Of a DNA stretch of 63,442 nt, positions 1 to 44,256 are shown in pieces. The translations under genes and the position numbers were made by a program. This stretch comes from a virus. Taxonomy: Duplodnaviria > Caudoviricetes. Each line of letters opens with the position of its first letter. Within the stretch, counting starts at the first letter, position 1. The stretch lies in the IMG/VR virus record IMGVR_UViG_3300044641_000353, positions 1-63,442 of that record; one strand, given 5' to 3'. Under the pieces are notes generated by a model. That model ran no database searches, was not told the origin of the DNA, and was given only the letters and a program-made list of their open reading frames with translations.

Positions 1-127
1 GTAACGCTCCTGCGCCATTACTTGTCAAAACGTGTGTCGCTGTACCGGGGCCAGCCGATGCCTGAAATGCGCCGGTACTTGTAGTGCCTGAGAACACCAC
101 GCTATACGCAGTTGTTGTAGAAAGACC
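1..127. repeat. 127-bp direct terminal repeat (circular assembly overlap)
   Basis: Bases 1-127 are identical to 63316-63442, and an ORF reads through the junction. Confidence 0.97.
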
Positions 128-19857: not shown

Positions 19858-19947
19858 ATGTTAACTAGATGGGAGAAACTCGAACGCATTGTTATTTTGT
19901 GTGCTTGCATAGTGCTTGCACTTGACCTACTTTATTGGAGACCATGA
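19858..19947 (+). CDS. 29-aa membrane peptide
   Basis: MLTRWEKLERIVILCACIVLALDLLYWRP; ATG inside the palindrome; ATGA overlap with the next gene. Confidence 0.65.
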   Translation: MLTRWEKLERIVILCACIVLALDLLYWRP

Positions 19948-20821: not shown

Positions 20822-20823
20822 TC

Positions 20824-21984: not shown

Positions 21985-22005
21985 TCAGACCCATGACGAA
22001 AGGAC

Positions 22006-22034
22006 TTGACTTTACCATAACATTGTGGTATAAT
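22006..22034 (+). promoter_or_regulatory. Sigma70 early promoter 3
   Basis: TTGACT-17bp-TATAAT, near-identical to promoter 2. Confidence 0.88.
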
Positions 22035-22170
22035 ATAAGCTGATGTGGGGTAGTTGTACCCATATCAGAGAAGTAGCAGTTGAAATCATTGTTAAACACC
22101 CGTGTATCTCACTTCATCAAAGAACTCGGGAACTCGCCTAACAATGTTAGGCACATCAGAAAGGTTAGAT

Positions 22171-23247: not shown

Positions 23248-23482
23248 GATTGGTAACGCATTTGTGCGTAGGCAGACGACAGTAGAGTTGAGTGAGCATG
23301 ACCCAAAGTTTAGGTCACCCGCTCGACTTTACTACACAGGCAAGTATGAATTGGTTGACGCTAAGGATTATCCAAGTGCATTTAGGGAAACCCAAAGAGT
23401 TATATCAATACATGACACGTTTGAAGAGGCGAAGTTATTTGCCGACATGATTAACAAGCAACGACATTTAGAAGGAACCTAA
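23231..23482 (+). CDS. Hypothetical protein
   Basis: 3' part of ORF 23096..23482; the likely start is the internal Met of MTFSRIG (start coordinate approximate). Confidence 0.45.
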   Translation, partial: TMTFSRIGNAFVRRQTTVELSEHDPKFRSPARLYYTGKYELVDAKDYPSAFRETQRVISIHDTFEEAKLFADMINKQRHLEGT

Positions 23483-23484
23483 CA

Positions 23485-24675
23485 ATGTTAGAAGAACGTA
23501 AATTGCAGAAAGCCAAGATCACGCTCATGCGTAATCCTAAGTTCGCCTTACTCCAAGGTGTGATGATGGTTGGTCGTACTAGCGTAGCGGATGACGTACC
23601 CACTGCATGCACCAATGGCAGGGATGAGAAGTATGGGCGTAAGTTTGTGGGGATGCTGACCGATAAGGAACTGGCATTTGTTGTGGCACATGAGGTGTCG
23701 CACAAAATGTATCGGCATTTGACCACATGGCGTAAGTTACATGACGAGGATGCGAGCCGTGCCAACAGTGCTTGTGACTACGTTATTAACTACATGCTCC
23801 ATGAACTCGACCCCAACGAGGATGTGATTGCCATGCCTAGGTTTAAGGATGGGGCGAAGAAGGGTGAGCGCATGGGACTGTACGACCCACAGTACAAGGG
23901 CATGAACTCTAAGCAGATATTCGACTTACTCAAAGATGAACAAGGCGGGGGCGGTCAGGGTGGTGATGGGCTTGATGAGCATGATTGGGATGGTGCAAAA
24001 GGCATGACCGAGGAGGAGAAGAAAACCCTTGAGCGTGAGATCGACCAAGCTATTCGTCAGGGTGTCATGGCACATGAGAAGGCACATGGCAAAGGTGCGG
24101 GTGGTATCGGGCGTGAGATTGATGAACACTTGCAACCCAAAATCAACTGGCGTGAGGAACTACGTGAGTATGTGAAAGCTACATGCCACAACAAGGACAC
24201 ATCGTCATGGCGCAGGGTCAACCGCAGATACTTATCTAGCGGTACGTATATGCCGAGCATGATCGGTGAGAAGGTTGGACACATCGTAGTAGCCATAGAT
24301 ACATCGGGCTCCATCGGTGGGCGTGAGCTTGACGAATTCTTAGCCGAGGTGAAAGGCGTGGCAGAAGAAGTCAACCCCGAGATGGTGGACTTGATCTATT
24401 GGGATGGTGATGTAGCGGGGCATGAGAAGTATGAGGGTGCGGAAGTATCTAACATTGTTAGCTCGACCAAACCCAAGGGTGGTGGAGGCACTGACCCTAG
24501 TTGCGTATCTCAATACTTGCGTGACGAGGCTATCAAGCCCGAGTGCATCATCGTGTTGACCGATGGCTATGTACCCAACTGGGGTAGCGAATGGACTGCA
24601 CCGACTATGTGGGTAATCACAGGAGGCAACGATGCGGTTTCTGACAATGGCAGAACGATTCATATTCAAGATTAA
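23485..24675 (+). CDS. HExxH metallopeptidase-like plus VWA domain protein (DUF2201-like)
   Basis: HEVSH, MIDAS DTSGS, GGGGT, LTDG; paired with the AAA+ gene. Confidence 0.85.
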   Translation: MLEERKLQKAKITLMRNPKFALLQGVMMVGRTSVADDVPTACTNGRDEKYGRKFVGMLTDKELAFVVAHEVSHKMYRHLTTWRKLHDEDASRANSACDYVINYMLHELDPNEDVIAMPRFKDGAKKGERMGLYDPQYKGMNSKQIFDLLKDEQGGGGQGGDGLDEHDWDGAKGMTEEEKKTLEREIDQAIRQGVMAHEKAHGKGAGGIGREIDEHLQPKINWREELREYVKATCHNKDTSSWRRVNRRYLSSGTYMPSMIGEKVGHIVVAIDTSGSIGGRELDEFLAEVKGVAEEVNPEMVDLIYWDGDVAGHEKYEGAEVSNIVSSTKPKGGGGTDPSCVSQYLRDEAIKPECIIVLTDGYVPNWGSEWTAPTMWVITGGNDAVSDNGRTIHIQD

Positions 24676-24685
24676 GGGAGGCAAC

Positions 24686-24931
24686 ATGGTAATAGTAGAC
24701 ATTGGATACAAGAAGTACATCATGCCCAAAGAGAAAGCCATGCAGTTAGTGGAAGTCTTAGAGAGCGCAGAGATATACGAAGAGAAGTATTGGAGTGAGG
24801 ACAGGCGCAAAGAGTTGGGCATGACTGAGACGTACACCTACCATGTGTATGCGAACGAAGCCAACTTCAGTATGCAGATCATAGGCGACAGTAAATATCA
24901 AATGGCTAGATTAGCCGGTAAACCAATTTAA
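24686..24931 (+). CDS. Hypothetical protein
   Basis: Start reassigned to ATG 24686 after AAGGGAGG. Confidence 0.7.
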   Translation: MVIVDIGYKKYIMPKEKAMQLVEVLESAEIYEEKYWSEDRRKELGMTETYTYHVYANEANFSMQIIGDSKYQMARLAGKPI

Positions 24932-24941
24932 GGAGAATGAA

Positions 24942-25790
24942 ATGAGTATTAGTGCATCAGCAGTGTTAGTGGAATTGAACATCAGCGTGTGGCCTGCGTC
25001 AAAGCTAGACCGCGATACAACGGCACAAGTGAATACTGACGCATCAGCAGTCGTAGACGCAGCGCGTGTCCACAAGAACCTATTCGCAGGTACTAACTTG
25101 CGTAAAGAGATCGAGAACTTTGCCGCCAAGGTTAGGCTCTATCACAATCAGCGAACGCTACCATGGGCAGACAAGGGCGAGCGTATGTTGCCGACCGCCT
25201 TGTTTATGGAGTACAAGCAAACCATGAACGCATACGAGCAGACGTTCAATGCAATGTGTGGCTCATTCTTTCACGCATATCCTGAGCTAGTGAAGGATGC
25301 ACCTACGCACCTAGGCAAGATGCACAGAGCCGAGGACTATCCCGAGCTTGAGGATGTGAAGCTGAAGTTTGGGTTTCGTAGAACAGTCAAGCCTGTACCG
25401 GAGGCGGGTGACTTTCGCTTAGACATACCTGCGAATGACTTAGCCGAGATGCAAGCAGAGTTCAGCGCACAACAAGACAACAAGCTAGCTGACGCTATGC
25501 GTGAGCCATGGGAGCGGTTACATGAAATGCTAGTAGGCATGTCTAAGAAACTCGACGACACATCGGGTGGTAAGAAGCGATACCACGACACACTGGTGAG
25601 CAACCCGCTAGAGCTTTGCTCATTGCTTACTAAGATGAACATCACCAACGACCCCAAGTTGGAGGAAGCACGCAAGGAACTAGAGCTAACAATGTTAGGT
25701 ACTAACATAGAAGCAATCAAGGAAGACGAGCATCATCGCACCGAGGTGAAAGCCAAGGTAGATGCAATCATTAAAAAGTTTGAATGGTAA
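24942..25790 (+). CDS. Conserved helical phage protein (DUF3150-like)
   Basis: LVELNISVW...TLPW...LNITNDP-like pattern; AAGGAG RBS. Confidence 0.65.
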   Translation: MSISASAVLVELNISVWPASKLDRDTTAQVNTDASAVVDAARVHKNLFAGTNLRKEIENFAAKVRLYHNQRTLPWADKGERMLPTALFMEYKQTMNAYEQTFNAMCGSFFHAYPELVKDAPTHLGKMHRAEDYPELEDVKLKFGFRRTVKPVPEAGDFRLDIPANDLAEMQAEFSAQQDNKLADAMREPWERLHEMLVGMSKKLDDTSGGKKRYHDTLVSNPLELCSLLTKMNITNDPKLEEARKELELTMLGTNIEAIKEDEHHRTEVKAKVDAIIKKFEW

Positions 25791-25800
25791 GGAGTAGATC

Positions 25801-26688
25801 ATGGATGCAAGCACAGCAATGACATTGAGTAACGTCACCATTAGCGAGAAGCTATTGAATGGTAGGCGTAAGACCGACTTTGATTTCGTAGTGGAGAAAC
25901 CCCTGCACGAGATCATGTGGAAGGTCATCACCGAGAACCCATCATGGGAGTTCAAGGTACAGGAATACTATGGACAAGTTAAGAGTGAGACCATGGACAC
26001 ACGCCCACGGATCACAGTTTCTAAGTTCGCAGTATTCAAAGATGGAGAAGAGATTGGCAAGATCGACCGAGACTACCGCTACGATCAGGGTGGGCATGTG
26101 TTCTCTATCACTAGCAATGCGATCAGGAATGAGCGTGAGCGTATAAGTTCGTATCGCACTAAGGATGCTAAGAAAGCCCTAGCCGCTATCAAGAAAACAT
26201 TCAGTAACAAGAGTGTAGGCGAGCGTGTGAATGAAGCGTTGGCAGAAGCTGTTCGCGTTGTTGGTAGACAAGTTAGTCAAAAGCGCAGTAACCATGGGAG
26301 TGCTTTGCATAGCCTGATACCACTTATGAAAACATTTGCGTTCATTGAGAACAACGATGAGTTTAGGCAGTACGCAGTGAACAACGGACAAGCCCATCAG
26401 CTAGTGAAGTTGCGGGAAACGGAAGCCGAGATGCTTACTGTTACTGACATAGAAAGCAAGTTTAAATCAGACAAGGGTACGAGCCTAGTCTTGCTATCTA
26501 GTGGAAAGTACTTAGTTAAAACAGGTGACGATATACAACTTTACGATGATAATACGCTCCCACTTGACATGAGAGGTAAGTTGGGTATGTTGAAATTAGT
26601 AGAGCCTGAGCAGATGATTGAAGGTGTGGGTTGCCGAGCCACTACCGAGGTCTTTGTCTTACTTACCGCAGAGCGGGAACTGGCATAG
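25801..26688 (+). CDS. Hypothetical protein
   Basis: Long ORF with AAGGAG RBS. Confidence 0.8.
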   Translation: MDASTAMTLSNVTISEKLLNGRRKTDFDFVVEKPLHEIMWKVITENPSWEFKVQEYYGQVKSETMDTRPRITVSKFAVFKDGEEIGKIDRDYRYDQGGHVFSITSNAIRNERERISSYRTKDAKKALAAIKKTFSNKSVGERVNEALAEAVRVVGRQVSQKRSNHGSALHSLIPLMKTFAFIENNDEFRQYAVNNGQAHQLVKLRETEAEMLTVTDIESKFKSDKGTSLVLLSSGKYLVKTGDDIQLYDDNTLPLDMRGKLGMLKLVEPEQMIEGVGCRATTEVFVLLTAERELA

Positions 26689-26720
26689 TGAAACAGGCTA
26701 ACAATGTTAGGAGAATCTAA

Positions 26721-26888
26721 ATGAAAGACGAAATGAAATACCAATCCAAAGTAATCCCCTTGCGGGGTTACGACCACCCCAAATTTAAATGGGTTAACTC
26801 TGCACAAACCGATATACGTAGAACGTGGCGTAAAGCAAGACTACTTATTCGCTTAACCAATGGGGCCGCTTATGAAAGCCGTACTTGA
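26721..26888 (+). CDS. 55-aa hypothetical protein (not in ORF track)
   Basis: AGGAG RBS; MKDEMKYQSK...FKWVNSAQTDIRRTWRKAR. Confidence 0.65.
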   Translation: MKDEMKYQSKVIPLRGYDHPKFKWVNSAQTDIRRTWRKARLLIRLTNGAAYESRT

Positions 26889-27054
26889 GTTTCAGTATCC
26901 GGAAGACGAGTACAAGCTAGAGCATGCACTAAAGGGTACGCAGTACTACGACGCATTGTGTGAGATAGACATAATACTTGCCGCTCCGTATACCAAAGCA
27001 GACGCATACGGCAGGATTAAGAAAGTAATTTTAGAAGTATTGGGGGACACATGA
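26872..27054 (+). CDS. Hypothetical protein
   Basis: MKAVLEFQYPEDE; start reassigned. Confidence 0.65.
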   Translation: MKAVLEFQYPEDEYKLEHALKGTQYYDALCEIDIILAAPYTKADAYGRIKKVILEVLGDT

Positions 27055-27272
27055 GAGGCACTGGATTTGGAAATGTTCTTGCGGGCAACATTGCGGCTCT
27101 CAAAGGACAGAAAAGAAACGAAAAACGCATGAGCCAAAAATGGAAAATGTGTTGGAAATGCCAAAAAGACAAAAGCCCTAATGGTGGGTTTCTCCGAATA
27201 ACTGCGGGGTTACACAAATTTATTTGCAAGGATTGTATGGATGCTAAACAAAAGAAATTGGAGGATGTATGA
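27051..27272 (+). CDS. Small Zn-finger protein
   Basis: CWKC...CKDC. Confidence 0.65.
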   Translation: MRGTGFGNVLAGNIAALKGQKRNEKRMSQKWKMCWKCQKDKSPNGGFLRITAGLHKFICKDCMDAKQKKLEDV

Positions 27273-27445
27273 AAGAAGATGACGATGACATTCAGGAGTA
27301 CGTTAGCACGAAGCAAGTGAACGAGGTCTACGAGAAGATACGCAACAACACGCTAGAAGAAGTAGCGCAAGAGTTTGACAAGATGAAAGCCTTTGGTGAT
27401 ACGTCAGCATCCTTTGCAGTATACGTACGGGGGATGAAAAGATAA
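27269..27445 (+). CDS. 58-aa hypothetical protein (not in ORF track)
   Basis: GGAGG RBS, ATGA overlap; MKEDDDDIQEY...RNNTLEEVA. Confidence 0.7.
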   Translation: MKEDDDDIQEYVSTKQVNEVYEKIRNNTLEEVAQEFDKMKAFGDTSASFAVYVRGMKR

Positions 27446-27705
27446 TGCCAAGACCAAAACCGCCTGAGCCACTTAAAGGTCGCAACATGCGAATGTCTGA
27501 TATTGAGTGGCTTATGTTTATAGAATTAGGAGGAGCCGAATGGCTAAGAAAACATGTTAAGCAAAAAGCAAAGTACCCAAAAGGATACTACGAAGCCCTT
27601 GCCAAACAAGGTGCTGACTCAAGAAGAGCTAATGGCGTGGTGGCCGTTCACACGACTAGACCCGAAGCGATTCCCCAAGCTAAAGAAACCACAACAGGAT
27701 TATGA
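27445..27705 (+). CDS. Ribbon-helix-helix-like DNA-binding protein
   Basis: MPRPK...RNMRMSD...LGGAEWLRK. Confidence 0.55.
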   Translation: MPRPKPPEPLKGRNMRMSDIEWLMFIELGGAEWLRKHVKQKAKYPKGYYEALAKQGADSRRANGVVAVHTTRPEAIPQAKETTTGL

Positions 27706-27721
27706 GGAGGCAACATTTTGA
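27554..27721 (+). CDS. Overlapping 55-aa ORF containing WWPFTRLDPK
   Basis: Open from ATG 27554 to TGA 27721; its stop overlaps the next TTG start. Confidence 0.45.
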   Translation: MLSKKQSTQKDTTKPLPNKVLTQEELMAWWPFTRLDPKRFPKLKKPQQDYEEATF

Positions 27722-27924
27722 CCACAGGAATTGAGTATTTGAAAGTAGAGAAGAAACGCAAGGGGCGGGGGCTTGGTAAGAAACCCGCATTAACTTGCAC
27801 GAGCTTGCGACTGCCGAGAGAGGTGATGGATTATTTCGACACCAACCATCGAATGTCAAAGCAAGCCAAGATGAGAGAAGTTCTTACCGAGTACGTTAAC
27901 AACCAAACAGGAAATAAACCATGA
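27718..27924 (+). CDS. BrnA-antitoxin-like RHH protein
   Basis: GRG...TSLRLPREVMDYF...QAKMREVL; GAGGAGG RBS, TTG start. Confidence 0.6.
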   Translation: MTTGIEYLKVEKKRKGRGLGKKPALTCTSLRLPREVMDYFDTNHRMSKQAKMREVLTEYVNNQTGNKP

Positions 27925-28532
27925 CAATCAAAAAAGTAACCAAAGCCGCACAAGTGCGTAACTACGTAGCCTCTAACCCCAAAGCCAAACCACAAGAGGT
28001 GGCAAACGCTGTCGGTGTTGGACTTCAGTACGTATACACAGTGCTGTGGAACGCAAAGAAGAAAGCCGGAGTTAAAAAGAAGGCTACGCTTACACTGAAA
28101 CGAGAGGGCGCACCGAGAAAAGGCGTGACGCTTGACCTGATTAAAGCAACTAACGAAGCGTTAAAGAAAGAGTTTGAAGCTAAAAGAACGCAAGAGCAGG
28201 TAGACAAGTATTGGAAAGCCGTAGGCGAAGTTCAAAAAGCAGGGCTATCAGCCGCCCGTGTTGCTGAACTTACTGCACAAGCGGGTAAACCAAAACTGCG
28301 TATGCAGGGTAGCGAGCCCACGCAGATCGAAATGTTCGACCCAGTAGACCATCCTGCCCATTACAAAGTAGGTGGAATCGAGACCATTGACTTCATCGAA
28401 GCAAAGAAGCTCGGGTACAACATCGGCAACGTGATTAAGTATCTAACTCGTGCCGACTACAAAGGCAACAAGCTCGAAGACTTGCGTAAAGCTCAGTGGT
28501 ATCTGACTCGTGAGATCAGCATGCTGAAGTAA
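27921..28532 (+). CDS. DUF3310-domain protein with N-terminal HTH-like region
   Basis: DPVDHPAHY...GNVIKYLTRA...EDLRKAQWYL. Confidence 0.8.
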   Translation: MTIKKVTKAAQVRNYVASNPKAKPQEVANAVGVGLQYVYTVLWNAKKKAGVKKKATLTLKREGAPRKGVTLDLIKATNEALKKEFEAKRTQEQVDKYWKAVGEVQKAGLSAARVAELTAQAGKPKLRMQGSEPTQIEMFDPVDHPAHYKVGGIETIDFIEAKKLGYNIGNVIKYLTRADYKGNKLEDLRKAQWYLTREISMLK

Positions 28533-28562
28533 AACCAACCTAACAATGTTAGGGTAATTCCT

Positions 28563-33601: not shown

Positions 33602-33625
33602 CAATGTCAAAAGTGGTGTTATATT
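33598..33625 (+). promoter_or_regulatory. Promoter with TTGACAATGTCAA palindrome
   Basis: TTGACA-16bp-TATATT, same architecture as 28598. Confidence 0.72.
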
Positions 33626-33630
33626 AGAGT

Positions 33631-33725
33631 TGTGTCGCAGTGATGGGTAACGGGTTAGCGCCGTTGCAGACGTTAAATGTTTTGAAACAATCACACTGCT
33701 TTATGTGAACTGTCACTGCGACACA
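33631..33725 (+). ncRNA. Candidate cloverleaf / multi-way junction RNA
   Basis: 16-bp closing stem (33631-46 with 33710-25) enclosing three hairpins; starts right after the promoter. Confidence 0.7.
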
Positions 33726-33746
33726 TTTAACAATTAGGAGAATCAG

Positions 33747-34169
33747 ATGGAAGAAGTTGAAGATAAAGTCACCTCCGTAGACTTGGACAGATTGACCTCA
33801 ATCTATATCAAGATACGCGACAAGCGGGCGGCAAACAAGAAAGTGTTTGAAGCCGAAGATCAAGACCTCGAAGAGCAGATGAAAGTGTTAGCACAAGAGA
33901 TGCTCGACGTATGCAAAGACATGAATGCCGACAGCATTCGCACCCCACATGGCACGATCATGCGTTCAATTAAGTCACGGTATTGGACAAACGATTGGGA
34001 TTCAATCTACGGTTTCATTGAAGAGACCGGAGCATTTGGCCTGTTAGAGAAAAGACTTCATCAAACAAACATGAAAGACTTTCTCGCTGAGAATCCAGAC
34101 CTTTACCCCAAGGGGCTAAATGTCGAAAGTGAATACACCGTGGTAGTTAGACGTTCTAAAGAAAGCTGA
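33747..34169 (+). CDS. Conserved phage replication-region protein
   Basis: YIKIRD...SIRT-x-HGT...DWD...LLEKRLHQ. Confidence 0.75.
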   Translation: MEEVEDKVTSVDLDRLTSIYIKIRDKRAANKKVFEAEDQDLEEQMKVLAQEMLDVCKDMNADSIRTPHGTIMRSIKSRYWTNDWDSIYGFIEETGAFGLLEKRLHQTNMKDFLAENPDLYPKGLNVESEYTVVVRRSKES

Positions 34170-34171
34170 AA

Positions 34172-35062
34172 ATGAGTAACATTACAATCCTCAACGAAGA
34201 CCTCCCCGAATTCTTGCAAACCGCAGGAGTTAGCGACCTTACACGACAACTCGCTGGTCGTACCGGAGTCAAACGCATTGTGCCTAAGAATGGCATTTTC
34301 CGTAAGACAGTCGGCGGCGAAGAGATGGGCAAGGTCAAAGGCAACGTGAATGCCGTCATCGTTAACGCATCCCCTGCTGTTGGTCGTATCTTCTACGCTA
34401 AACAGTGGAGCCCTGATGCTGAGCCGACTGCACCTGATTGCTTCTCTAATGATGGGCGCGCACCCGATGCAGGCTCAGCTAACCCACAAGCAGATCGTTG
34501 CGATAGTTGCGGGCAGAATATCAAAGGCTCAGGCCAAGGTAACTCTAAGGCTTGCCGCTATTCACGCCGCATTGCGCTTGTGTTGGAAGAAGACTTCGGT
34601 ACATCACTTGAAGGTTCAGTCTACCAAATGAACTTGGCGTCCAAGTCTTTGTTTGGTGAAAGCGTAGGTGATAACACGCACACGTTTGAAAACTACTCTA
34701 AGTACTTGTCCAACAACGGCAAGAGCTTGGACTACGTTGTGACGCAGATTAGTTTCAACGAAGACAACGACAACCAGTCTGTGTTGTTTACGCCGACTAA
34801 GTACATTAACAAGACACAGTACGCTGTGACTAGCAAAGTGGCTAACACTCCTGAAGTGCTGAAGATGGTAGTTATGACACCATACCAAGCTGACATGTCC
34901 GGCAAGACCGCTAAGTTGGAAGCACCTGCCCCCAAAGCAGAAGCCCCTGCTAAAGTTGATCCAATCGACGAGCCAATCAAGCGCCCCGCTAAGGCCGCGC
35001 CTGCACCTGTGACCAAGAAGGATTTGGATTCCGTGGTGAAGGCTTGGAGTGAAGAGGAGTAA
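34172..35062 (+). CDS. Putative ssDNA-binding/recombination protein
   Basis: PDCFSNDG...CDSC...GSG...KACR; acidic Trp-containing C-terminal tip; replication cluster. Confidence 0.6.
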   Translation: MSNITILNEDLPEFLQTAGVSDLTRQLAGRTGVKRIVPKNGIFRKTVGGEEMGKVKGNVNAVIVNASPAVGRIFYAKQWSPDAEPTAPDCFSNDGRAPDAGSANPQADRCDSCGQNIKGSGQGNSKACRYSRRIALVLEEDFGTSLEGSVYQMNLASKSLFGESVGDNTHTFENYSKYLSNNGKSLDYVVTQISFNEDNDNQSVLFTPTKYINKTQYAVTSKVANTPEVLKMVVMTPYQADMSGKTAKLEAPAPKAEAPAKVDPIDEPIKRPAKAAPAPVTKKDLDSVVKAWSEEE

Positions 35063-35065
35063 CGC

Positions 35066-35314
35066 ATGACCTATGGTTATAGCCAGAGCTTGGTGCACGC
35101 AAATAAAAAAGCAAGCGTCAAGTCTCTGGGTGTGGCCTTGGGTCGTGTATGTATCCGCGAAAACATAAGCGTTAGCAAGATTGCAGATGACTTTGGGGTA
35201 ACCCGAATGACTATCTACAATTGGTTTAAGGGGGACTCAGTCCCCTTTCATTCCTACGATCAAGCGATCAGCGATTACATACTCCACCTTAAAGCCCACC
35301 ACCAACTGAAATAA
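35066..35314 (+). CDS. Cro/XRE-type HTH protein
   Basis: SVSKIADDFGVTRMTIYNWFKG. Confidence 0.8.
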   Translation: MTYGYSQSLVHANKKASVKSLGVALGRVCIRENISVSKIADDFGVTRMTIYNWFKGDSVPFHSYDQAISDYILHLKAHHQLK

Positions 35315-35318
35315 ATAA

Positions 35319-38159
35319 ATGTCCCACTTTGACCTACTAGATGCAGTACTACCCACAGAGGGTCGGTACTGTGTGTTTGGGCTAGGGAAGTATCCAGATC
35401 AGAAGTTTTACGATACAAGAGCAGAAGTAGATGAGCAAATTGAGACGCTAGTAAGTAACAAGTTCGATGTGTTTTTTGGTTGCGCCAAGTTTGGCCCGCT
35501 CAATAACCGCACACACGAAAACGTTGCCTATGTTCGCGCACTGTGGATGGATATTGATTGCGGCCCCACGAAGGCTGTACCCGATGAAAAGGGAGTTATC
35601 AAAGGTTACATTGACCAAGCCACAGGTCTTGCCGAGTTTAAGAAGTTCTGTAAAAACGTAGGGTTACCACAACCAATTTTAGTTAGTTCAGGCTACGGCA
35701 TCCACGCATACTGGTTGCTAGAAGAGACCATAACTCGCACAGATTGGGAACCCCTTGCAAACCGCCTTCGTGAGTTGTGCGTAGAGCAAGGATTCATTGT
35801 TGACCCTGCTGTATTTGAAGCATCCAGAGTACTGCGTGTCCCCGGCACATACAACTTTAAAGCTGAACCTGTTGAAGTAAAGGTTCTTAACGAAGTCACT
35901 CAGCGTATGACCTACGCACAAGTGAAAGAGCTACTCGGCGCACCGGATGCAGAACCGGAAGACGAGCGGCCAGACTTTATACCGCGCACCATGAGTCCTT
36001 TGATGGAATCGGTGATGCAGAATAAGGTGAAGCGATTTAAAACAATAATGCTGAAATCAGCGCAGGGCGAAGGTTGCAACCAACTGATGCACTGCTACGA
36101 GAATCAAGCCACACTCGACTACAACTTATGGCGCTCAGCGCTTTCGATTGCAACTTTTTGCATCGACCGAGATTCCGCAATACACAAAATGTCTGCGGAG
36201 CATCCCGACTACGACCGGTTTAAGACCGAGTACAAAGTTGATGACCTGCAACGCACGGGTGGGCCGCATCATTGCGCTACCTTTGAGAAGCAGAACCCCA
36301 CGGGTTGCGAAGGGTGTAAACACAAGGGCAAGATCAAATCACCAATCATGCTTGGTGTGGAGATTGAGGAAGCCGAAGACGAAGATTACGATGTTGTAAT
36401 TAAAGCCGAAGACGGTGAGGTTGAGACAGTGCGCATACCTGAGTATCCATTCCCATTCTTCAGGGGTAAAAACGGCGGCATCTACCGCAGACCCGCAACT
36501 GACGAAGCAGAACCAGACCTTGTGTATGAGCACGATCTATACATCATCAAGCGGTTAACAGACCCCGATATTGGGGAGACGTTGCTATTCCGATTGCACC
36601 TACCAAGGGACGGCATGAAGGAGTTTGCAATCCCACTCGGAGTACTTTCATCAAAAGACAAACTGCGGGAAGCACTAGCGTCTAAGGGTGTGGGCTTGTT
36701 TAGTAAGCAAGTCGACCTCATGTGCGTATATGTGATTACAGCGGTTAAAAATTTACAAGTTATGCGGAAGGCAGATATTATGAGAACACAGTTTGGTTGG
36801 GTCGATAACGATAGCAAGTTCATTCTTGGCGATAGAGAGATTACAAAAGATGGTGTGTATTACAGCCCGCCCTCACACATTACCAAGGCGGTAGCCGAGC
36901 ACCTTAACGAACACGGTGACTTTGAGAAGTGGAAAGAAGTCTTCAACATGTACGCGCAGCCCGGCCTTGAGCCCCATGCTTTTGCGGCACTGACGGCCTT
37001 TGGTTCACCACTGTTGAAATTTACAGGTATGTCTGGTGCAATCATCAACTTGATTCACAGTAGCTCAGGCTCGGGTAAGTCGACTGCCTTGTTTATGTGC
37101 AACAGTGTATGGGGTCACCCCGTTAAGAACGCCTCGATCTGGAAGGATACGTTCAACGCAAAGATGCACAGGCTTGGCGTGATGAACAACCTGCCCAACA
37201 CAATCGACGAGATTACGAACACCAGCCCTATGGAGTTCTCTGACCTGTCGTATAGCATCTCTCAGGGTCGAGGCAAGAACAAGATGCGTGGCTCGGTCAA
37301 CGAAGAGCGGGTTAACTTAACTAGCTGGAATGGGATGACCTTAACGTCCTCAAACGCTAGCTTCTACCAAAAGCTTGGTGCGGCAAAAGATTCCCCCGAT
37401 GGTGAGTCCATGCGTCTACTTGAGTATGAGATCAAGCCTAACAACCTGATTGACGTGCAAGTCGGCAAGCAAATGTTTGACCACCAACTGCGGGAGAACT
37501 ACGGGTTTGCCGGTGAGATTTACGCCCAGTGGCTTGTCAACAACTTGGAAGATGCCAAAGACCTAGTGCGCAAGATTCAGGCTAAGCTCGACAAAGAAGT
37601 TAAGTTCACACAGCGTGAGCGTTTCTGGTCAGCCGTAGCCGCCTGTAACATTGCCGGTGGCCTAATCGCTAAGAACCTGCAACTGCACGACTACGACATG
37701 AAGGCCGTGTACGACTGGCTTAAAGGTATGCTCGGCGAGATGCGTGAGGATATTAAGCCCCCAGTCAGCAACCCCGCCTCTACCCTTGGTGAGTTTATCA
37801 ACGGCAACATGAACCACGCTTTGGTTGTAAATGGTGAGAATGACGCACGGAGCAACATGATCCCTATGCCGACTATGGAGCCAAAGGGTGAACTGCTTAT
37901 ACGCTACGAGCCGGATACCAAACTGTTATGGATTGCGGCCAAGTCGTTTAAAGACTTTTGCGTCCAGCGTCAGATTAACTACAAAGATTTACTTAACGAG
38001 CTGAAAGAGGCTAATGTATTTAAAGAAGCAGTCAACAAGCGTATGGCTAAGGGTATGAAGGTTGTGTCTCCCGCAGTGCGTGCCCTGATGTTTGATGCGT
38101 CTCGGTCTGATTTTATTCACATAGATACACCCGATGAAAATCGAGACAGTTCACTATGA
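35319..38159 (+). CDS. Primase-helicase (AEP/RepB-like primase, Cys cluster, DUF927, P-loop)
   Basis: WMDID, SGYGIHAYW, RVLRVPGT, C..CEGC cluster, GWVD, SGSGKST. Confidence 0.88.
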   Translation: MSHFDLLDAVLPTEGRYCVFGLGKYPDQKFYDTRAEVDEQIETLVSNKFDVFFGCAKFGPLNNRTHENVAYVRALWMDIDCGPTKAVPDEKGVIKGYIDQATGLAEFKKFCKNVGLPQPILVSSGYGIHAYWLLEETITRTDWEPLANRLRELCVEQGFIVDPAVFEASRVLRVPGTYNFKAEPVEVKVLNEVTQRMTYAQVKELLGAPDAEPEDERPDFIPRTMSPLMESVMQNKVKRFKTIMLKSAQGEGCNQLMHCYENQATLDYNLWRSALSIATFCIDRDSAIHKMSAEHPDYDRFKTEYKVDDLQRTGGPHHCATFEKQNPTGCEGCKHKGKIKSPIMLGVEIEEAEDEDYDVVIKAEDGEVETVRIPEYPFPFFRGKNGGIYRRPATDEAEPDLVYEHDLYIIKRLTDPDIGETLLFRLHLPRDGMKEFAIPLGVLSSKDKLREALASKGVGLFSKQVDLMCVYVITAVKNLQVMRKADIMRTQFGWVDNDSKFILGDREITKDGVYYSPPSHITKAVAEHLNEHGDFEKWKEVFNMYAQPGLEPHAFAALTAFGSPLLKFTGMSGAIINLIHSSSGSGKSTALFMCNSVWGHPVKNASIWKDTFNAKMHRLGVMNNLPNTIDEITNTSPMEFSDLSYSISQGRGKNKMRGSVNEERVNLTSWNGMTLTSSNASFYQKLGAAKDSPDGESMRLLEYEIKPNNLIDVQVGKQMFDHQLRENYGFAGEIYAQWLVNNLEDAKDLVRKIQAKLDKEVKFTQRERFWSAVAACNIAGGLIAKNLQLHDYDMKAVYDWLKGMLGEMREDIKPPVSNPASTLGEFINGNMNHALVVNGENDARSNMIPMPTMEPKGELLIRYEPDTKLLWIAAKSFKDFCVQRQINYKDLLNELKEANVFKEAVNKRMAKGMKVVSPAVRALMFDASRSDFIHIDTPDENRDSSL

Positions 38160-38328
38160 GGTTAACTGGGCTAAGTTCCGCAAGGGGTACTCGTTTTTTG
38201 TACCCTGCATTGATACAGCGAAAGCTAAAGCGGAACTTGACCGAGTGGCCCGCCGACTAAAGATGGATCTACTTACGAAAGTAGTCATAGAAGACGGCAT
38301 AAAAGGTTTGCGAGTGTGGAGGCTTTAG
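38134..38328 (+). CDS. Small conserved phage protein
   Basis: SFFVPC...GLRVWR. Confidence 0.75.
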   Translation: MKIETVHYEVNWAKFRKGYSFFVPCIDTAKAKAELDRVARRLKMDLLTKVVIEDGIKGLRVWRL

Positions 38329-38342
38329 GCTAAACTTTAGTT

Positions 38343-38416
38343 GTCGGGAAGCAGTTGCCGACGGTTTATTTTGGTTGCCCTCCTTGTACCCCCGGCTAAT
38401 CCCCGGGGGTTTTTTT
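38343..38416 (+). ncRNA. Candidate stand-alone sRNA with anti-Shine-Dalgarno seed
   Basis: Promoter TTGCGA-17bp-TAAACT (38308-38336), 5' hairpin, unpaired GGTTGCCCTCCTTG, terminator. Confidence 0.6.
38389..38416 (+). terminator. Intrinsic terminator at the convergence of the two genome arms
   Basis: CCCCCGG...CCGGGGG followed by T7. Confidence 0.85.
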
Positions 38417-41400
38417 CATTTCGCCGCTTCTTTTTCAAGCTTCTCACGAGAGGGCTCAAGCAACTGCTCCAAGTATGGATAGAACTTCTTGTCCACATCA
38501 AACCCACGATCAGACTTGGCGCGCTTAGCTATACGCGCTTGAACTAATTTGCTTAAGTCACCACCATCAACCCTAGCTTGCGGGTTACGCGCACCGAACG
38601 CAATTAGTTTTTCCAGTGCGTCATCAAACGCTTCGTCATCGCCTCGTGTAGCTTCTAGGTCAACACGATTAACAAGCTTACCTTTCTCAATCACTACTTT
38701 TGCTTTAAGTGCATTGGCTTTAAAGTTAGCTTCTTGCGCGGAAGCCAAACCTGTAGTCCGTGCACCGCCTGCTTGAGCAAGTAATTGCGCTTTTGTGAAC
38801 TCCTCGGGCTCTCTAATAACTGCGCCTGTACTTGTTGTAGCGCCTTCTTGACTATATCGAACAGCAGTCAATGGCTGGCGCAGGGCGGCAGGGAGAAGTC
38901 TTTCCAAGCCTTGCATGGTTTTACCCTCTTGCAGTAGACGGATAGCTGAAGGTATTTGATTTAACGCCAAACTAGCAAACGGCCCCATTAACGACAGCGC
39001 GTATTCTTGCACTGTATCTTCAAGAGCGCGTTGTTCTTTTAACTCAGGCATCCACATGTTGTTCATTGACAAGCTATTGGACATGGCGTAGCCCGAGATA
39101 GTGTCAATTAAACCAGAATCTAGGATGTCACTAATCTTATATCCACCAATCTGGGCTTCACCAAAGAACTCAGGAATAAATACACTGCGACCCCAGAATT
39201 CAAGATCGCGCTCTTCTAACGGGTCTTCATCGTCTTCGTCACGCATTGCATTAATAATACCTTGCACAGCACCCATAGCCGCGCTGATACCGGGGATACC
39301 AACATAACCAGCAAGCAAGCCTGACATAAACAAAGTACCAAAGAACTGAGTAGCCGCTTCTTTCTTAGCCGCCGCATCCATACCGGCCATCATGCGGTAA
39401 GCGTTACGAGCCAAGTATGTGGTTACGAAAGCAGGGAAAGTCTTAAATTGCAGCAGCGTACGACCAAGCGGGCCACGCATGACACGCGCACGATTTTGCT
39501 CAGAGAAGTTACCAAGGGCATCGTAAGTATCTTTAACTGCTTGATCGACAGCGTCGTCGAAAGACATGCCTTCTTTGCGGCTCAAACGGAATGAAGTCAT
39601 AAACATGACTTCGCGGTTTAAACGCTCAACGTGGTGGAACAAACCACCCATCATGTTAGTCGCAGATTTCCATGCGCCAGAGTACTTAGTTGACGGAGTG
39701 TTGCGACGATCCATTAAGTCATAGGCCATCGTGATCTCACTGACACCACGATCTGTCATTGCTTCAATAGCCAGTTGCTCTTCCTCGTTCATCTTAACGC
39801 GACGAGAGTTAGCTAAAGACAACTGCTTAAGGTTTCCATCTTTATCAATAACACCGACGTCGTTAAAGATCAACATCATTTTGCCCATCTCAGCGGCTAC
39901 AGCGGCAGGGCTATGGCGAGACATAAGGACAGGTGCGCCAAATATAGGCAATGAGGAGAACTGAACAACAGCGGTCTTAACCGAAGTCATGAAGTATAGG
40001 AACGCCGACTTGTTTGCAAAGTTAGCCGCACTTTGCGCTACAGAATCTACAGCAGGTGGGTAGACTTCTAACTGAACACGGTTACCAAGTTCATCGACTA
40101 GCATCTCTAGCTTGTCTTTCTCAGGATTGCCCTTGAGACTTTCTTTGGCAGCGTCAACTTCACGAAGCATTGTCGGGCCATATTTCAGACGCGCAAGCTG
40201 GTTAGCCATATTAGTGGATGACGTGATAAAGTTACGCAGCGCGTCACCTGAGAAGCCAGCAGTACCCTTGCGGTGAATAAACTGACGACGGAAACTCTGC
40301 TCCGGCATCGTAGTCAAATACAACTGATAGATTTGATCCTTGAGTGTCTCGGCATCAGTCTCACTAATACCATCACCAATTAGCTCAAAGATTTGTTTAA
40401 GCAGAGGCGCGGTGTCGTTAGTTGTGCTCTTATCGCGCAAGCCCTTTAAATCATTACCGGTTTCAATATCCTCGTCGGCTTTCATCTCAGCCATACTGCG
40501 GGTATCACCGTCTTTTTGCAGATCACGCACTCGCTGACGCATAAACATCTCGCGGTCGACTACGCTTTCAAACATGTAGAACTCTTTCTTCTTACCAGAG
40601 CCCACACGCAACCAGTAATCACCATAGCGCATCAATGGGAAGTATGGAGACAGACCCTTTGCTGTCTCGTACATCTTCTTAATCTCAGCCATTAACTTAC
40701 CCTTGGGTGTGTCGGGGTCGGCGGCATCACCGGGGATCTTCATTGCGTCAATGCGGTTGTTTAACAGCAAGCGGTACAAGTCAAAGTTAGACTTGTAGTA
40801 ATCACGTACATCAACGTAGATTTCCTTGGCCTTATCGCTCAGGCCATCCCACATCTTGTTAAGCGTAGCGTCTTTTCTATTTGTAGCAGGGTCAATGCTC
40901 TTGTCTGTGGCGTAGTGCATCACAGCAGATAGCTCAGCAAGTTCATTCTTTTGGCCCTTGACTAGCTTGCCGTACATACCGGGCTGGACGTTTAACCATT
41001 TGGTTACTACATCTGAAGCACCACCAAGCATCTTCATGCGCATAGCACCCATGTCTTGCATAGCACGCCATGTTTTATCCATGTGCGTAATACCAAGGTT
41101 AGTGCCCCACTCAACTAAAACGTTAGTCTGGATAGCAGGCATCAGCGCTTTTAACTTAACAACGTTGAGCGCACTCCACATAGACTCAAGGGTATCTAAG
41201 AAAATCTGCGGGTCGCGTAGCTTAACCATTGTGTCAATGCCGTCGACTACCTCTTGCGCTTCCTTGCTGCGCAGGATTTTCTTTTCAGCAGCGGTAATCT
41301 TTTTAGCGTTGGCTTTGGCCTTAGCTTTAGCCGCAGAAACTTTCTCACCACGGCCTTCACGGATTGCGTTAGCTTTGTCAGCCTTGGCAATCATCTTCAT

Positions 41401-44256
41401 TGTTGGTGTTAGCTTAGCCGTCAGAATCTCATCAGTAACAAGAATTAAGTCAGACAGGGCGTTGATGGAGTCGAGCCCCATGCCAAGTAATTCACGGATT
41501 GCGTCTACAAAACGGTTAAACAGACCTGTGTCTTCTTCAAAACCATAAGCCCCCATCAGGAACTTCTGGAAGTAGGGGTCGGTCATGCCATAGGAAACAA
41601 ACTCGTGCGGGTTGCTAAACACACCAGACACGGTCTTTAGGTAGTAAATATCTGTGGGCAGCTCGCCCAAGTTAGACAGTCGGTTGTATTCATCCTTTGC
41701 GTTGTTCATCACGTCGATGAGCTTGTTGTACGCACGAGTTAGTTTGGCATCACCTGAAAACCCACGTTGAACGGCGAGGAGAGCAAGCTCAAGCTTTTGC
41801 TGCGTTGCAGCATGAAGTAACTCGTGCAGTACTGTGGTGTTATTAATACCTTGGAAGTCACCTGCGCTAGAGCCGCGCACGTAGATAATCTTTTCACCAG
41901 TAGTTGTGTTCTCAAAATACACACCACGGGCACGGGAGTTGTCATTGCCCCAAGCCTCTTGATGGCGAGACAGTTGTTCTGGTAGGGGGTCGGTCTCTTC
42001 AACTACAACAAATTTAACGCCGTTGACCAGCCCACGAAGGCGTTTGGCCAAGAATTTTTGCATGCCAGTTCCTGTTTTAACAACTTGATTAACGGCCTGC
42101 GCAGCGTTCTTAGCTTTCTTAAACCCTTCGTCTGCGGCTTCGACTTCTTCGTTACTTGCAGAGCTTTTGTTTACGCGCTCTTGAGATTTGTACTTGCGTC
42201 CAGCCTGCACATCGTCGTAGTCTCTTTGAGAAATCTTTGTGCGATCAGCAAGTGCGGCTTTAACCCGTTTACCCAAAGCAGTGCCACGGTGCTTAGTTTC
42301 CAAGTCCATCATTGCGTTGATGGTGTCTCGTTTAAGCGCACGCTTCTCGTCTTGGGCAGAAGATAACTCTAGGTCGTCGGCAAACTTAGTTTCGTCAACA
42401 GGTTTGGCGGCTTCTTCTAACTGGGTTTGGAGCTTGGGTAAAGCACGCTCGCCCTTCATGTACTCAGCACGGCCTTCGGTACGGGCTTTCTCTTTCTCCG
42501 CACGCTTTTCTTCAGTGATGTCAGCCTTTGGCCGACCACGTTGTTTGCCGGTTACTGCTCCGGCTGCTGGTGCTTCTTGTCCTTCTTCTTTTGTTTGGAC
42601 GGCTTCAGGGGTCTCAGTGCCAAGTTCGGCTCCTTTAGTTTCTACGGGGGTTTTTACGGGGGTTGGCTCTACTGCAACGGGTTCAACTCTTTCTCTTTCA
42701 ACAGGCTCTGTAACATCCGCTCTAGCAGGAACCACTCCATCTCGTTCAGCTTCTCCAACTCCTGTGGTGGCGGGAACGTTGTCGGCTGGTTGTGCAAGTA
42801 CCGCAGGGCTCTCTCTACCTGCTTCACTGATAGGTTCTGTAACATCTTTTGCTCCCTCTTCAATAGGCGCATTTGCTTCCTCAATCTCGTTACGCGCTAG
42901 TGTAGCGGCGTCTTCGGGCATGTAGCCCCGCTTCTTGTATTTTGCTACAAGTGCTTCAAGCTCTGGGGAGGGCGCAGGTTGTACCTCTGGAGTTACTTCC
43001 GTAGGAGCAGCTTCCGATACCACCGTAGGGGGCGCAGGTTGTACCTCTGCCGCAGGTTGTTCTTCTACCGCAGGCTTCATGCGTTTGGCTAGGGCATCTT
43101 TAAGTGCTTGGCGCTTGTCAACTGGGGCTGTCGGGGCTAAGGGAGTTTCTTCTTCTACCGTCCATGGGTCTAAAGTAGGTTCAATCTTTTCTGCGGTTGG
43201 TTTTGGTTCTTCTCTACGACGCCCTTTAACGGCTGTAGCACCAACGCCCATAGTTGCACCCGTTACAAGGCCCATACCAGCCGCTTCAGGAACACCTTCT
43301 AAAATAGGCTTATCTAAAGCGTAGTTTGCCCACATCTGTTCTTGCGCAGACTGCGGCATCTCTTCAAATACACCTTCGGTTACACCAGCGGCAGTAGCAC
43401 GCACGGCAAAATCTTTAACCGACTTTGAACCACCACCTGTAGTTGCTTTACTAGCCAGTAGCGTGTCAATATCATCAATGCCTAATTTATTGGCTAACCT
43501 ACCACCAGCCACACCAAATGCCGCCGTACCAGCACCGGAACCAACGGCAGATAAAGCTTGTTTGCCAGTTAATAATTTGTCTTCGGTTTGTTGGCGTGTT
43601 TGCTCAGCAGCACTACCAGCACCAATTAAACCTTCACCCGCAGCGGCGGCTAAATATGGGGAAACTTTTGGCGCGGCTTTTAAAACCCCTCTAGCAATAC
43701 CTGCTCCGCCAAGCATTGGTGCTATTGATTCGCCAACCGTTGTAGCAATAGTGCTGGGGTATTGAAGGGCTTTGCCAATGGTTGGTAAGAAACCTTTTGT
43801 TTCTTTTACTTGGCGATTTGCGTATTGTTGTGCCTCAGACAAATACGTATCAAGTATTTCTTTGGCTTCGTTAGGTTTGTAACCCGCTTGCTCAAGAAGT
43901 TTACCAACACGGCCAAGCGTGGGAATGTCAGCTAAACCAACAAAAGCTTCAGGTAAACCAATAGCACTTTTAAGAAAAGTAATACCGGCATCGAGGGTTG
44001 TACCGCCAATAGTTCTGTCGTAACCCTTTGCTTCCCTTGCCGCAACTTGAGCACGGTACTCATCCGCAGTCATGGAGTTAGGATTACGCACCGGATTTGT
44101 GCCTACAAAACGCTCCATCTGCTGGGGCGTCATTTGTTGCGTAGGGGCAACGGCAGGGGCGGGGGCAATAGGAGTTTCAGACGCGACTTCCCAGCCAGAA
44201 CTATCGGCTGCACCGACTGGAGTTTCGGAAACAACCGACCATTCGTCTTTTGCCAT
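38416..44256 (-). CDS. Large polyvalent internal-virion/ejection protein (HExxH peptidase plus PLxRFG-like domain)
   Basis: 1946 aa; TVLHELLHAAT; YFPLMRYGDY; last gene of the late operon. Confidence 0.75.
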   Translation of the reverse strand: MAKDEWSVVSETPVGAADSSGWEVASETPIAPAPAVAPTQQMTPQQMERFVGTNPVRNPNSMTADEYRAQVAAREAKGYDRTIGGTTLDAGITFLKSAIGLPEAFVGLADIPTLGRVGKLLEQAGYKPNEAKEILDTYLSEAQQYANRQVKETKGFLPTIGKALQYPSTIATTVGESIAPMLGGAGIARGVLKAAPKVSPYLAAAAGEGLIGAGSAAEQTRQQTEDKLLTGKQALSAVGSGAGTAAFGVAGGRLANKLGIDDIDTLLASKATTGGGSKSVKDFAVRATAAGVTEGVFEEMPQSAQEQMWANYALDKPILEGVPEAAGMGLVTGATMGVGATAVKGRRREEPKPTAEKIEPTLDPWTVEEETPLAPTAPVDKRQALKDALAKRMKPAVEEQPAAEVQPAPPTVVSEAAPTEVTPEVQPAPSPELEALVAKYKKRGYMPEDAATLARNEIEEANAPIEEGAKDVTEPISEAGRESPAVLAQPADNVPATTGVGEAERDGVVPARADVTEPVERERVEPVAVEPTPVKTPVETKGAELGTETPEAVQTKEEGQEAPAAGAVTGKQRGRPKADITEEKRAEKEKARTEGRAEYMKGERALPKLQTQLEEAAKPVDETKFADDLELSSAQDEKRALKRDTINAMMDLETKHRGTALGKRVKAALADRTKISQRDYDDVQAGRKYKSQERVNKSSASNEEVEAADEGFKKAKNAAQAVNQVVKTGTGMQKFLAKRLRGLVNGVKFVVVEETDPLPEQLSRHQEAWGNDNSRARGVYFENTTTGEKIIYVRGSSAGDFQGINNTTVLHELLHAATQQKLELALLAVQRGFSGDAKLTRAYNKLIDVMNNAKDEYNRLSNLGELPTDIYYLKTVSGVFSNPHEFVSYGMTDPYFQKFLMGAYGFEEDTGLFNRFVDAIRELLGMGLDSINALSDLILVTDEILTAKLTPTMKMIAKADKANAIREGRGEKVSAAKAKAKANAKKITAAEKKILRSKEAQEVVDGIDTMVKLRDPQIFLDTLESMWSALNVVKLKALMPAIQTNVLVEWGTNLGITHMDKTWRAMQDMGAMRMKMLGGASDVVTKWLNVQPGMYGKLVKGQKNELAELSAVMHYATDKSIDPATNRKDATLNKMWDGLSDKAKEIYVDVRDYYKSNFDLYRLLLNNRIDAMKIPGDAADPDTPKGKLMAEIKKMYETAKGLSPYFPLMRYGDYWLRVGSGKKKEFYMFESVVDREMFMRQRVRDLQKDGDTRSMAEMKADEDIETGNDLKGLRDKSTTNDTAPLLKQIFELIGDGISETDAETLKDQIYQLYLTTMPEQSFRRQFIHRKGTAGFSGDALRNFITSSTNMANQLARLKYGPTMLREVDAAKESLKGNPEKDKLEMLVDELGNRVQLEVYPPAVDSVAQSAANFANKSAFLYFMTSVKTAVVQFSSLPIFGAPVLMSRHSPAAVAAEMGKMMLIFNDVGVIDKDGNLKQLSLANSRRVKMNEEEQLAIEAMTDRGVSEITMAYDLMDRRNTPSTKYSGAWKSATNMMGGLFHHVERLNREVMFMTSFRLSRKEGMSFDDAVDQAVKDTYDALGNFSEQNRARVMRGPLGRTLLQFKTFPAFVTTYLARNAYRMMAGMDAAAKKEAATQFFGTLFMSGLLAGYVGIPGISAAMGAVQGIINAMRDEDDEDPLEERDLEFWGRSVFIPEFFGEAQIGGYKISDILDSGLIDTISGYAMSNSLSMNNMWMPELKEQRALEDTVQEYALSLMGPFASLALNQIPSAIRLLQEGKTMQGLERLLPAALRQPLTAVRYSQEGATTSTGAVIREPEEFTKAQLLAQAGGARTTGLASAQEANFKANALKAKVVIEKGKLVNRVDLEATRGDDEAFDDALEKLIAFGARNPQARVDGGDLSKLVQARIAKRAKSDRGFDVDKKFYPYLEQLLEPSREKLEKEAAK

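Follow-up and report, generated by a model that had tools for sequence, protein, structure and literature searches.

What, if anything, is encoded in the 87-nt gap that separates the end of a phage replication operon from the large gene converging upon it? The window (the whole stretch of DNA that was analyzed) is a complete phage genome record, 63,442 bp long and carrying direct terminal repeats. A block of plus-strand genes (17,814-38,328) separates two blocks of minus-strand genes, of which one reaches as far as 17,713 and the other begins at 38,416. The plus block carries the replication genes, which encode an ATPase, a DNA polymerase, an exonuclease, a helicase and a DUF927 primase/helicase (35319-38159), while the terminase, portal, capsid and very large DarB-like proteins are encoded in the minus blocks. 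The replication operon extends from 33747 to 38328, its first gene (33747) lying behind a strong promoter at 33598 and its last being a 64-aa ORF, p64 (38134-38328, plus strand, with a TAG stop codon), which is also the last plus-strand gene. Neither Pfam nor PHROG assigns p64 to a family, and nothing in it hints at an RNA-binding partner. The converging gene (38416-44256, minus strand) encodes a DarB-like/polyvalent protein of 1946 aa; it is replaced in many relatives and lies outside the RNA unit described below.

The gap contains a whole non-coding unit, and the hairpin, U-rich stretch, box and terminator that the earlier note had described are each present, on direct reading of the plus strand, where it had placed them. 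A 5' hairpin (38343-38362) is built on the stem GUCGG/CCGAC (38343-38347 and 38358-38362) and exposes the loop motif GCAGUUG (38351-38357); the same helix is obtained from single-sequence folds and from RNAalifold. There follow a U-rich linker, GGUUUAUUUU (38363-38372), and a box, GGUUGCC-CUCCUUG-U (38373-38387), in which a GUUGC motif adjoins a CU-rich anti-Shine-Dalgarno core and which contains the seed read directly as GGUUGCCCUCCUUG (38373-38386). The unit ends with an intrinsic terminator (38388-38416) that reads A-CCCCCGG, loop CUAAUCC, CCGGGGG-U and then U7; a terminator scan gives it a stem of 8 pairs, 7 of them G-C, at 38388-38410 with a T7 tail, the final T of which is overlapped by the stop codon of the 1946-aa gene (38416-38418). 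Folded by itself, the sequence from 38343 to 38417 adopts the arrangement of hairpin, open middle and terminator at -26.8 kcal/mol, with a modest z-score of -1.55 (11 of 200 shuffles were as stable). The sequence of this one genome is unremarkable when taken alone, and the case for a functional RNA rests on conservation in relatives.

Such relatives come from uncultivated phages. No DNA-level match, near or distant, was obtained among GenBank phages, where the nearest cultured phages by terminase protein are DSL-LC04, Pelagibacter phage HTVC027P and a group of Planktothrix/Synechococcus phages (47-57% identity) and where no cultured phage was found to encode a primase relative above 31% identity. 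In IMG/VR, 327 relatives were reached through the primase and 593 through the DNA polymerase, 80 loci being kept from each search. By tblastn, p64 was detected in 107 loci, with that of this genome counted, and 101 of these were usable in the sense that they comprised the ORF end and at least 100 nt downstream of it; they supply 74 distinct gap sequences. Relatives that are 66-72% identical to this phage across the gene and gap together are 80-87% identical over the part that spans box and terminator (~38371-38421), for which 7 of them give a separate match. A covariance model built from a hand alignment finds a single site in this genome (38337-38416, 86.1 bits), and it finds one match each in 72 of 81 sources and in four of the five whole relatives.

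In the hand alignment, 93.3% of the cells at paired positions can pair, compensatory changes are seen in 4 of 15 pairs, and none of 500 shuffles reaches its covariation score. The model-fitted alignment of 55 distinct rows, which by its construction is biased towards the covariance model, has compensatory changes in 11 of the 15 pairs and 94.3% of its cells paired, as compared to 37-56% in slid controls. Its terminator helix is 99.3% paired, with both sides changed in 4 of 8 pairs, and the sequence of the terminator loop is conserved as well. RNAalifold recovers both helices and leaves the box unpaired. Many of the pairs are of the G-U type when read in the plus sense (UG in 19 of 55 rows at pair 9-57, GU in 10 of 55 at pair 109-132), and since these would be A-C mismatches on the opposite strand, the structure is assigned to the plus-strand RNA. 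The complement of the box, AAGGAGGG, does read as a strong Shine-Dalgarno sequence and has a suitably spaced ATG in three relatives (L059, L072 and L017), so that the selected feature could in principle be a minus-strand one, i.e., the ribosome site of a small ORF or part of a read-through transcript; the G-U pairs and the presence of a U-tail on the plus strand only make this scarcely credible. A minus-strand ORF as such was rejected as a candidate: among 72 elements, 42 lack the combination of Shine-Dalgarno and start, 27 have an ORF of fewer than 20 aa and 3 have one of at least 20 aa, with none in this genome. From these comparisons, we consider it very probable that the element is a real, conserved and structured plus-strand RNA.

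The right-hand boundary of the unit has a history of its own. Five relatives (L003, L004, L012, L013 and L019) are 93-98% identical to this phage up to the terminator, and the similarity then ends within a few bases past it (38417-38425, at ~38421), where a different convergent gene stands. As judged from these alignments, the terminator is a recombination junction between modules. One could go further and suppose that a terminator at a module junction is all there is, the shared sequence having been spread by recent recombination at a common boundary. The loss of homology right past the terminator in several close relatives, the differing downstream genes and the recurrence of the same terminator in other phage contexts are all to be expected on such a supposition. 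However, the element has diverged into 74 distinct versions, its compensatory changes and motifs are kept over several architectures down to 49% primase identity, and the other terminators of this genome lack the CU box, all of which render this explanation very improbable.

The architectures in question differ by clade. In some clades the first hairpin is missing and in others a second hairpin follows the box; there are clades with double boxes and clades in which the box is partly sequestered by a GAAAGG stretch. Box and terminator are kept throughout. The most distant relative, L271 (49% primase identity, 58% G+C), retains p64, GCUCCUUCC, GGUUGAC and the terminator and does not have the TAnACT box that is discussed below. 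The L271 contig, 8 kb in length, was assigned to an Actinomycetota MAG and is the sole match of the primase in a cellular genome; it is either a weak hint as to the host or a phage contig that was binned with the MAG. To our knowledge, Actinomycetota are generally without Hfq. The module also occurs away from p64. A search with the terminator pattern returned 97 stretches, and among 90 new loci p64 stands upstream in 72 and not in 18, of which 5 are too short for judgement. One of these other contexts (L181, ~8650-8829, with an identical copy in L204) is an intergenic unit in which the near-consensus promoter TTGACA-18-TATATT is followed by ~120 nt with two GACCUCCA boxes and a AGCAGUUGAC motif, and it ends in a CCCC.GCUAAUC..GGGG terminator that is the same as that of the p64-linked unit; the whole resembles a second family of small-RNA genes, related to the first. 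Further contexts without p64 have TATACT boxes (L219 and L195) or TATAAT (L196), and in those of the L197 type a CU box and the same terminator follow a stop codon by ~25 nt, into which a promoter would not fit.

Whether the RNA is made from a promoter of its own depends on two hexamers upstream of the hairpin. The earlier note had read TTGCGA-17-TAAACT as lying inside the end of the last gene, which is true of the -35-like TTGCGA (38308-38313), located within the last Leu-Arg codons of p64, and not of the -10-like TAAACT (38331-38336), which begins 2 nt beyond the TAG; the 17-nt spacer is as described. By consensus (TTGACA/TATAAT, 16-18 nt apart) the pair is a poor one, matching at 4 + 4 of 12 positions (8/12), and a promoter scan with a cut-off of 9/12 lists none in 37000-40000. 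Its conservation is a different matter. In the 74 distinct relatives, the hexamer at +5 to +10 from the stop codon has T in 73, A in 73, any base at the third position (25 A, 25 C, 15 G and 9 T), A in 73, C in 67 and T in 73, and the non-coding columns that flank it are conserved at 34-66%. The A at position 2 and the T at position 6 are thus nearly invariant, as is fitting for a -10-like box, and the C at position 5 is unusual in one. The -35-like columns read T in 67, T in 74, G in 64, C in 72, G in 74 and any base at the last position; the Leu codon there is TTG in 64 of 74, and TTG accounts for 24% of Leu codons genome-wide. The 17-nt spacing between TTGCGN and the hexamer is invariant across relatives, and the stem of the hairpin begins 5-6 nt past the hexamer in 22 of 22 alignment rows, from which it follows that a transcript would begin at the foot of the 5' hairpin, with a predicted start at ~38343. 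The bases downstream do not co-vary with the hexamer, and for this reason a paired or palindromic reading was dismissed; on the comparative evidence, the conservation profile is that of a -10 element rather than of a paired or palindromic site.

Five near-consensus promoters are found elsewhere in the plus block, at 18014, 19513, 22006, 28598 and 33598, with matches of 10-11/12 and an extended -10 TG. Their sigma-70 type implies that the host polymerase recognizes the canonical consensus. If the conserved pair at 38308-38336 is a promoter, then it is a weak or regulated one. The pattern TTGNNN-16..18-TANACT has three occurrences in the genome, the other two being away from gene starts. Taking the poor match and the conservation together, we think it likely that the RNA has its own promoter. 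A search for RNA sequencing runs covering 37300-39300 returned none, a result that speaks neither for nor against transcription. The description of the unit as a self-contained sRNA gene, as first proposed, is partly supported, in that comparison bears out the conserved -10-like box, the 5' hairpin, the exposed CU box and the terminator.

The same facts can be read in another way, namely that the element is a 3' UTR only, a structured end of the operon mRNA that serves stability and termination without any separate transcript, its CU box perhaps pairing in cis with ribosome sites of the operon, e.g., that of the first gene, to give feedback or 5'-3' closure. The operon mRNA must carry the element in any case, as there is no terminator between them (the plus strand from 38134 to 38388 has no other terminator-like site, and the unit shares its terminator with the operon). 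The 8/12 promoter, the retention of box and terminator without TAnACT in L271 and the L197-type contexts that are too tight for a promoter would all sit comfortably with a 3' UTR. Left unexplained, however, are the profile of the hexamer, with its free third position among near-invariant ones, and the fixed distances of 17 nt to TTGCGN and of 5-6 nt to the hairpin; clear -10 boxes, including one near-consensus promoter, also accompany the module in its other contexts. We therefore regard the 3' UTR-only explanation as rather unlikely, although it is the most probable of the alternatives considered here; it also accounts for a pattern of complementarity described below.

The reading of the element as a small-RNA gene raises the question of what its exposed part does. 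Motif counts in 72 elements, which are phylogenetically non-independent, exceed those expected from shuffles for CTCC (68 elements as against 16.1), CTCCT (66 as against 6.2), GTTGC (51 as against 4.8), GTTAG (20 as against 3.2) and, in the loop of the hairpin, CAGTTG (38 as against 0.9). The CU box is predicted to be open, with a mean unpaired probability of 0.85 and a value of at least 0.5 in 67 of 70 elements. Small RNAs of the Hfq type have a U-rich single-stranded stretch beside a hairpin and upstream of the terminator. In this family that stretch, the linker GGUUUAUUUU, is confined to this genome and its close relatives and is replaced by a different sequence in other clades. The U tail that is also expected of the Hfq type is general, as a T run of at least six terminates 72 of the 74 distinct elements.

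Candidate targets had been named in the earlier note, and the pairings that it described can be reproduced. Upstream of the ATG at 24686 stands UAAGGGAGGCAAC, which by hand alignment forms 12 of 13 pairs with the seed, two of them G-U; upstream of the TTG at 27718 stands GAGGAGGCAAC, which forms 11 pairs with one bulged C; and AGGAGGCAAC occurs at 24621. The 27718 protein had been labelled BrnA-like, for which Pfam offers no support even at E values up to 10. The sequence GGAGGCAAC has three copies on the plus strand of the genome and none on the minus strand. Around 24686, a single ORF has two in-frame starts (24632 and 24686), each after a GGAGGCAAC ribosome site and 55 nt apart (24621-24688), and the 24632 start overlaps the end of an upstream HNH-like gene. 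When 80 credible ribosome sites were ranked by cofold binding energy, the two named sites came out first (27718, -18.6) and second (24686, -16.3), ahead of 27921, 20449 and 20648, so that they rank unlike random ribosome sites.

The specificity of these pairings is less apparent. At the two named sites (27718 and 24686), 6 and 5 of 60 shuffled seeds equal the seed of this phage, and of 40 foreign RNAs of the family, 8 match its best score, 12 match the mean of its top three, and 5 and 3 do as well at those two sites. A gapless comparison of own versus foreign RNAs in six whole genomes gave no own-genome excess for this phage, in which the sites above the score number 8 for its own RNA and 7, 3, 0, 4 and 1 for the foreign ones. 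In the decisive comparison, that with relatives, covariation of seed and targets did not materialize: L083 keeps the seed, and both of its orthologous ribosome sites, which read ttaggaggaacaaaATG and ttaaaggagaaaaataGTG, have lost the GCAAC extension, while in L082 the seed has gained a U and the 24686 site has changed from CAAC to CAGT with no compensation. Just upstream of the 27921 ATG, at the site that ranks third of the 80, AAAUAAACC is complementary to the U-rich linker over 9 nt; this match is lost in L083, and by estimate ~0.3 such matches are expected by chance. The listed complements of the hairpin loop motif were uninformative. It is thus doubtful, in our estimation, that the two named sites are the actual targets of the RNA.

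Across the family, a different ribosome site stands out. In 7 of 53 distinct pairs, the ribosome site of the 33747 orthologue is complementary, without a mismatch over 10 nt or more, to the CU box and flank of its own genome's RNA, as compared to 0.72 expected from foreign RNAs of the family; control genes reach this in 1 of 65 pairs (expected, 0.12) and in 1 of 69 (expected, 0.14). The longest such complement is of 14 nt, in L142 (CAACCAAGGAGAAA); those of 11 nt occur in L075 and L131, the latter of which is not counted among the 7 of 53 because its start codon was misplaced in that count and its run scored 0, and those of 10 nt in L161, L033/L034, L154, L155 and L139. The flanks of the 33747 site vary by lineage and the RNA of each lineage follows them. 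At the 27921 orthologue the corresponding figure is 3 of 8, as compared to 0.34 expected. Over 72 loci, 52 ribosome sites are complementary to their own RNA over 9 or more consecutive nt (4 of these being self-antisense artefacts) as against 19.2 with foreign RNAs. Within the six whole genomes, an own-genome pairing excess is confined to two with the seed GUUAGCUCCUU, where three to five sites read AAGGAGCTAAC-N-ATG. At the 33747 site, complementarity amounts to just 5-7 nt in the clade of this phage and in the two commonest other clades. Sliding-window duplex scanning over 17 long loci returned mostly GC-rich coding matches, with too much noise to be of use. As the matches belong to minority lineages and there is no own-genome excess in this phage, the idea of pairing at ribosome sites has support in some lineages of the family, and in this phage such pairing is a candidate mechanism. 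The recurrence of 10-14 nt complements at the first gene of the same operon is the pattern that the 3' UTR-only explanation would also accommodate.

A further possibility is that the RNA binds a protein rather than mRNAs, acting as a ligand or decoy. Its contacts would be made by the loop GCAGUUG, the terminator loop CUAAUC and the GGUUGC motif, and its partner could be a phage factor, an RNA chaperone or a ribosomal protein. The conservation of loop and linker motifs while the stems covary, the preservation of the terminator loop even in unrelated contexts and the failure to find a conserved mRNA target in the clade of this phage are in keeping with such a role. Yet no candidate protein was found, the adjacent p64 being without a family, and the most constant feature of the RNA is an anti-Shine-Dalgarno core that is predicted to be unpaired; the lineage-specific complements to ribosome sites also speak for pairing. 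A protein-binding or decoy function consequently seems to us quite unlikely, and action through the anti-Shine-Dalgarno box has, on the sequence comparisons, a chance slightly short of even.

No Rfam family, c4 included, reaches its gathering score with the element. The scores below threshold are 19.7 of 42 for PsrR1 (RF02701), 18.8 of 50 for RF02278, 18.8 of 39 for NsiR1 and 24.5 of 50 for atoC, and the best in the loci of 9 relatives are 28.7 of 50 for atoC and 24.7 of 42 for PsrR1; c4 is not among the matches below threshold. Membership in PsrR1 was considered and rejected, the scores being under the cut-off both in this genome and in the 9 relatives' loci. In the case of PsrR1 and RF02278, it is the 3' half that aligns with the phage RNA, i.e., CUCCU, a few bases, a G+C-rich terminator and a similar loop. 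Their 5' parts are unmatched and the scores are far under the cut-offs, so the phage RNA is a member of neither. The members of RF02278 (Betaproteobacteria toxic small RNA) are short and terminator-ended, and one paper states that their function is unknown (PMC4603805).

In their setting, the closest parallels are small RNAs embedded in 3' UTRs. The enterobacterial MicL and DapZ are of this kind and have their promoters inside the upstream coding sequence. The phage RNA resembles them in a promoter that would lie over the end of the upstream ORF, a terminator shared with the mRNA, short length and a single-stranded seed; it differs in being phage-encoded and unrelated in sequence, and its promoter is deduced from conservation only.

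Among RNAs of phages, c4 of P1 and P7 blocks the translation of a phage mRNA by pairing around the ribosome binding site (PMC12197685). Both are phage RNAs that expose complementary stretches in their structure; they differ in architecture and genomic setting, and c4 has one defined gene as its target whereas a conserved target was not found here. The PreS/LPR1 RNA of lambda and VpdS of VP882 are Hfq-dependent trans-acting sRNAs whose targets in the lytic cycle include mRNAs of both phage and host, PreS activating dnaN (bioRxiv 10.1101/2024.10.31.621285 and PMC12197685). They belong to temperate phages with known hosts and their Hfq binding has been demonstrated by experiment; the seed of the present RNA is a generic anti-Shine-Dalgarno core. 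Most of what is known of phage regulatory RNAs in general comes from temperate phages, few in number, that infect model hosts (PMC12197685). A described equivalent of the present element was not found in the literature searched, the coverage of which extends to few subscription journals.

Putting these lines of evidence together, we give about an even chance to the full proposal that the replication operon carries, in the 87-nt gap at its 3' end, an embedded sRNA gene of ~74 nt (~38343-38416, plus strand). The product would probably be an anti-Shine-Dalgarno regulator and, as such, a new phage regulatory RNA. Host RNA polymerase of the sigma-70 type would start at the weak and conserved promoter spanning the end of p64, and the RNA would begin with the hairpin and stop at the intrinsic terminator that also ends the operon mRNA. 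One sequence would in this way be present in two forms, a free small RNA and the 3' UTR of the operon; both must coexist if the promoter is real, since operon transcripts meet no terminator ahead of the element. The exposed GGUUGCC-CUCCUU would then pair with Shine-Dalgarno regions and the spacer up to the start codon, and this pairing would keep ribosomes off some of the phage mRNAs that come from the early or replication modules, and perhaps off host mRNAs too.

A more ambitious extension of this proposal, which we offer as speculation that is unlikely to be right, would make the RNA the trans-acting arm of a post-transcriptional timer that operates phage-wide. The anti-Shine-Dalgarno box with GUUGC or GUUAGC would co-evolve with ribosome sites of the early and replication genes that consist of a Shine-Dalgarno sequence, GCAAC or GCUAAC, and AUG, part of the site being the left arm of a CTAACA...TGTTAG repeat that is present in 10-19 copies in the early region of each of six complete genomes. 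If true, the RNA would shut off the first gene of its own operon and other early genes after the replication genes have been expressed; early-mRNA shut-off, which proteins bring about in other phages, would here be the work of RNA alone. Apart from any timer, the element defines a candidate sRNA sequence family in an abundant uncultivated phage group for which there is no Rfam family. With more than 70 variants, several architectures and lineage-specific complements, its promoter, structure and targets are directly testable, and a natural set of anti-Shine-Dalgarno seeds with varied flanks could show how a generic core gains target specificity.

The plus block has several further features. The inverted repeat (C)TAACA-W-TGTTA(G), of 12-14 bp, has 17 copies in 17971-28541 and another at 33385, and its copies are found in 5' UTRs, at start codons (20449, 20648 and 23485) and within ORFs. 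Five whole relatives have 10-19 copies with the same arms and a central spacer of 1, 2 or 3 nt according to lineage, and in one of the genomes (G003) a copy is located inside the small-RNA element, directly after the -10 box. A non-coding gap of 684 nt (18947-19630) contains a terminator, a direct repeat of ~40 nt (GAATACCAGTTCTCTGG.CGGCAGTAGCAA, twice) and several copies of the palindrome, together with runs of GTTACG-like words and the strong promoter at 19513, and it may be an origin or control region. Finally, downstream of the 33598 promoter and ahead of the ribosome site, the 5' UTR of the 33747 gene includes a long inverted repeat (GTGTCGCAGTGA ... TCACTGCGACAC; 33620-33735) and looks like a structured leader.
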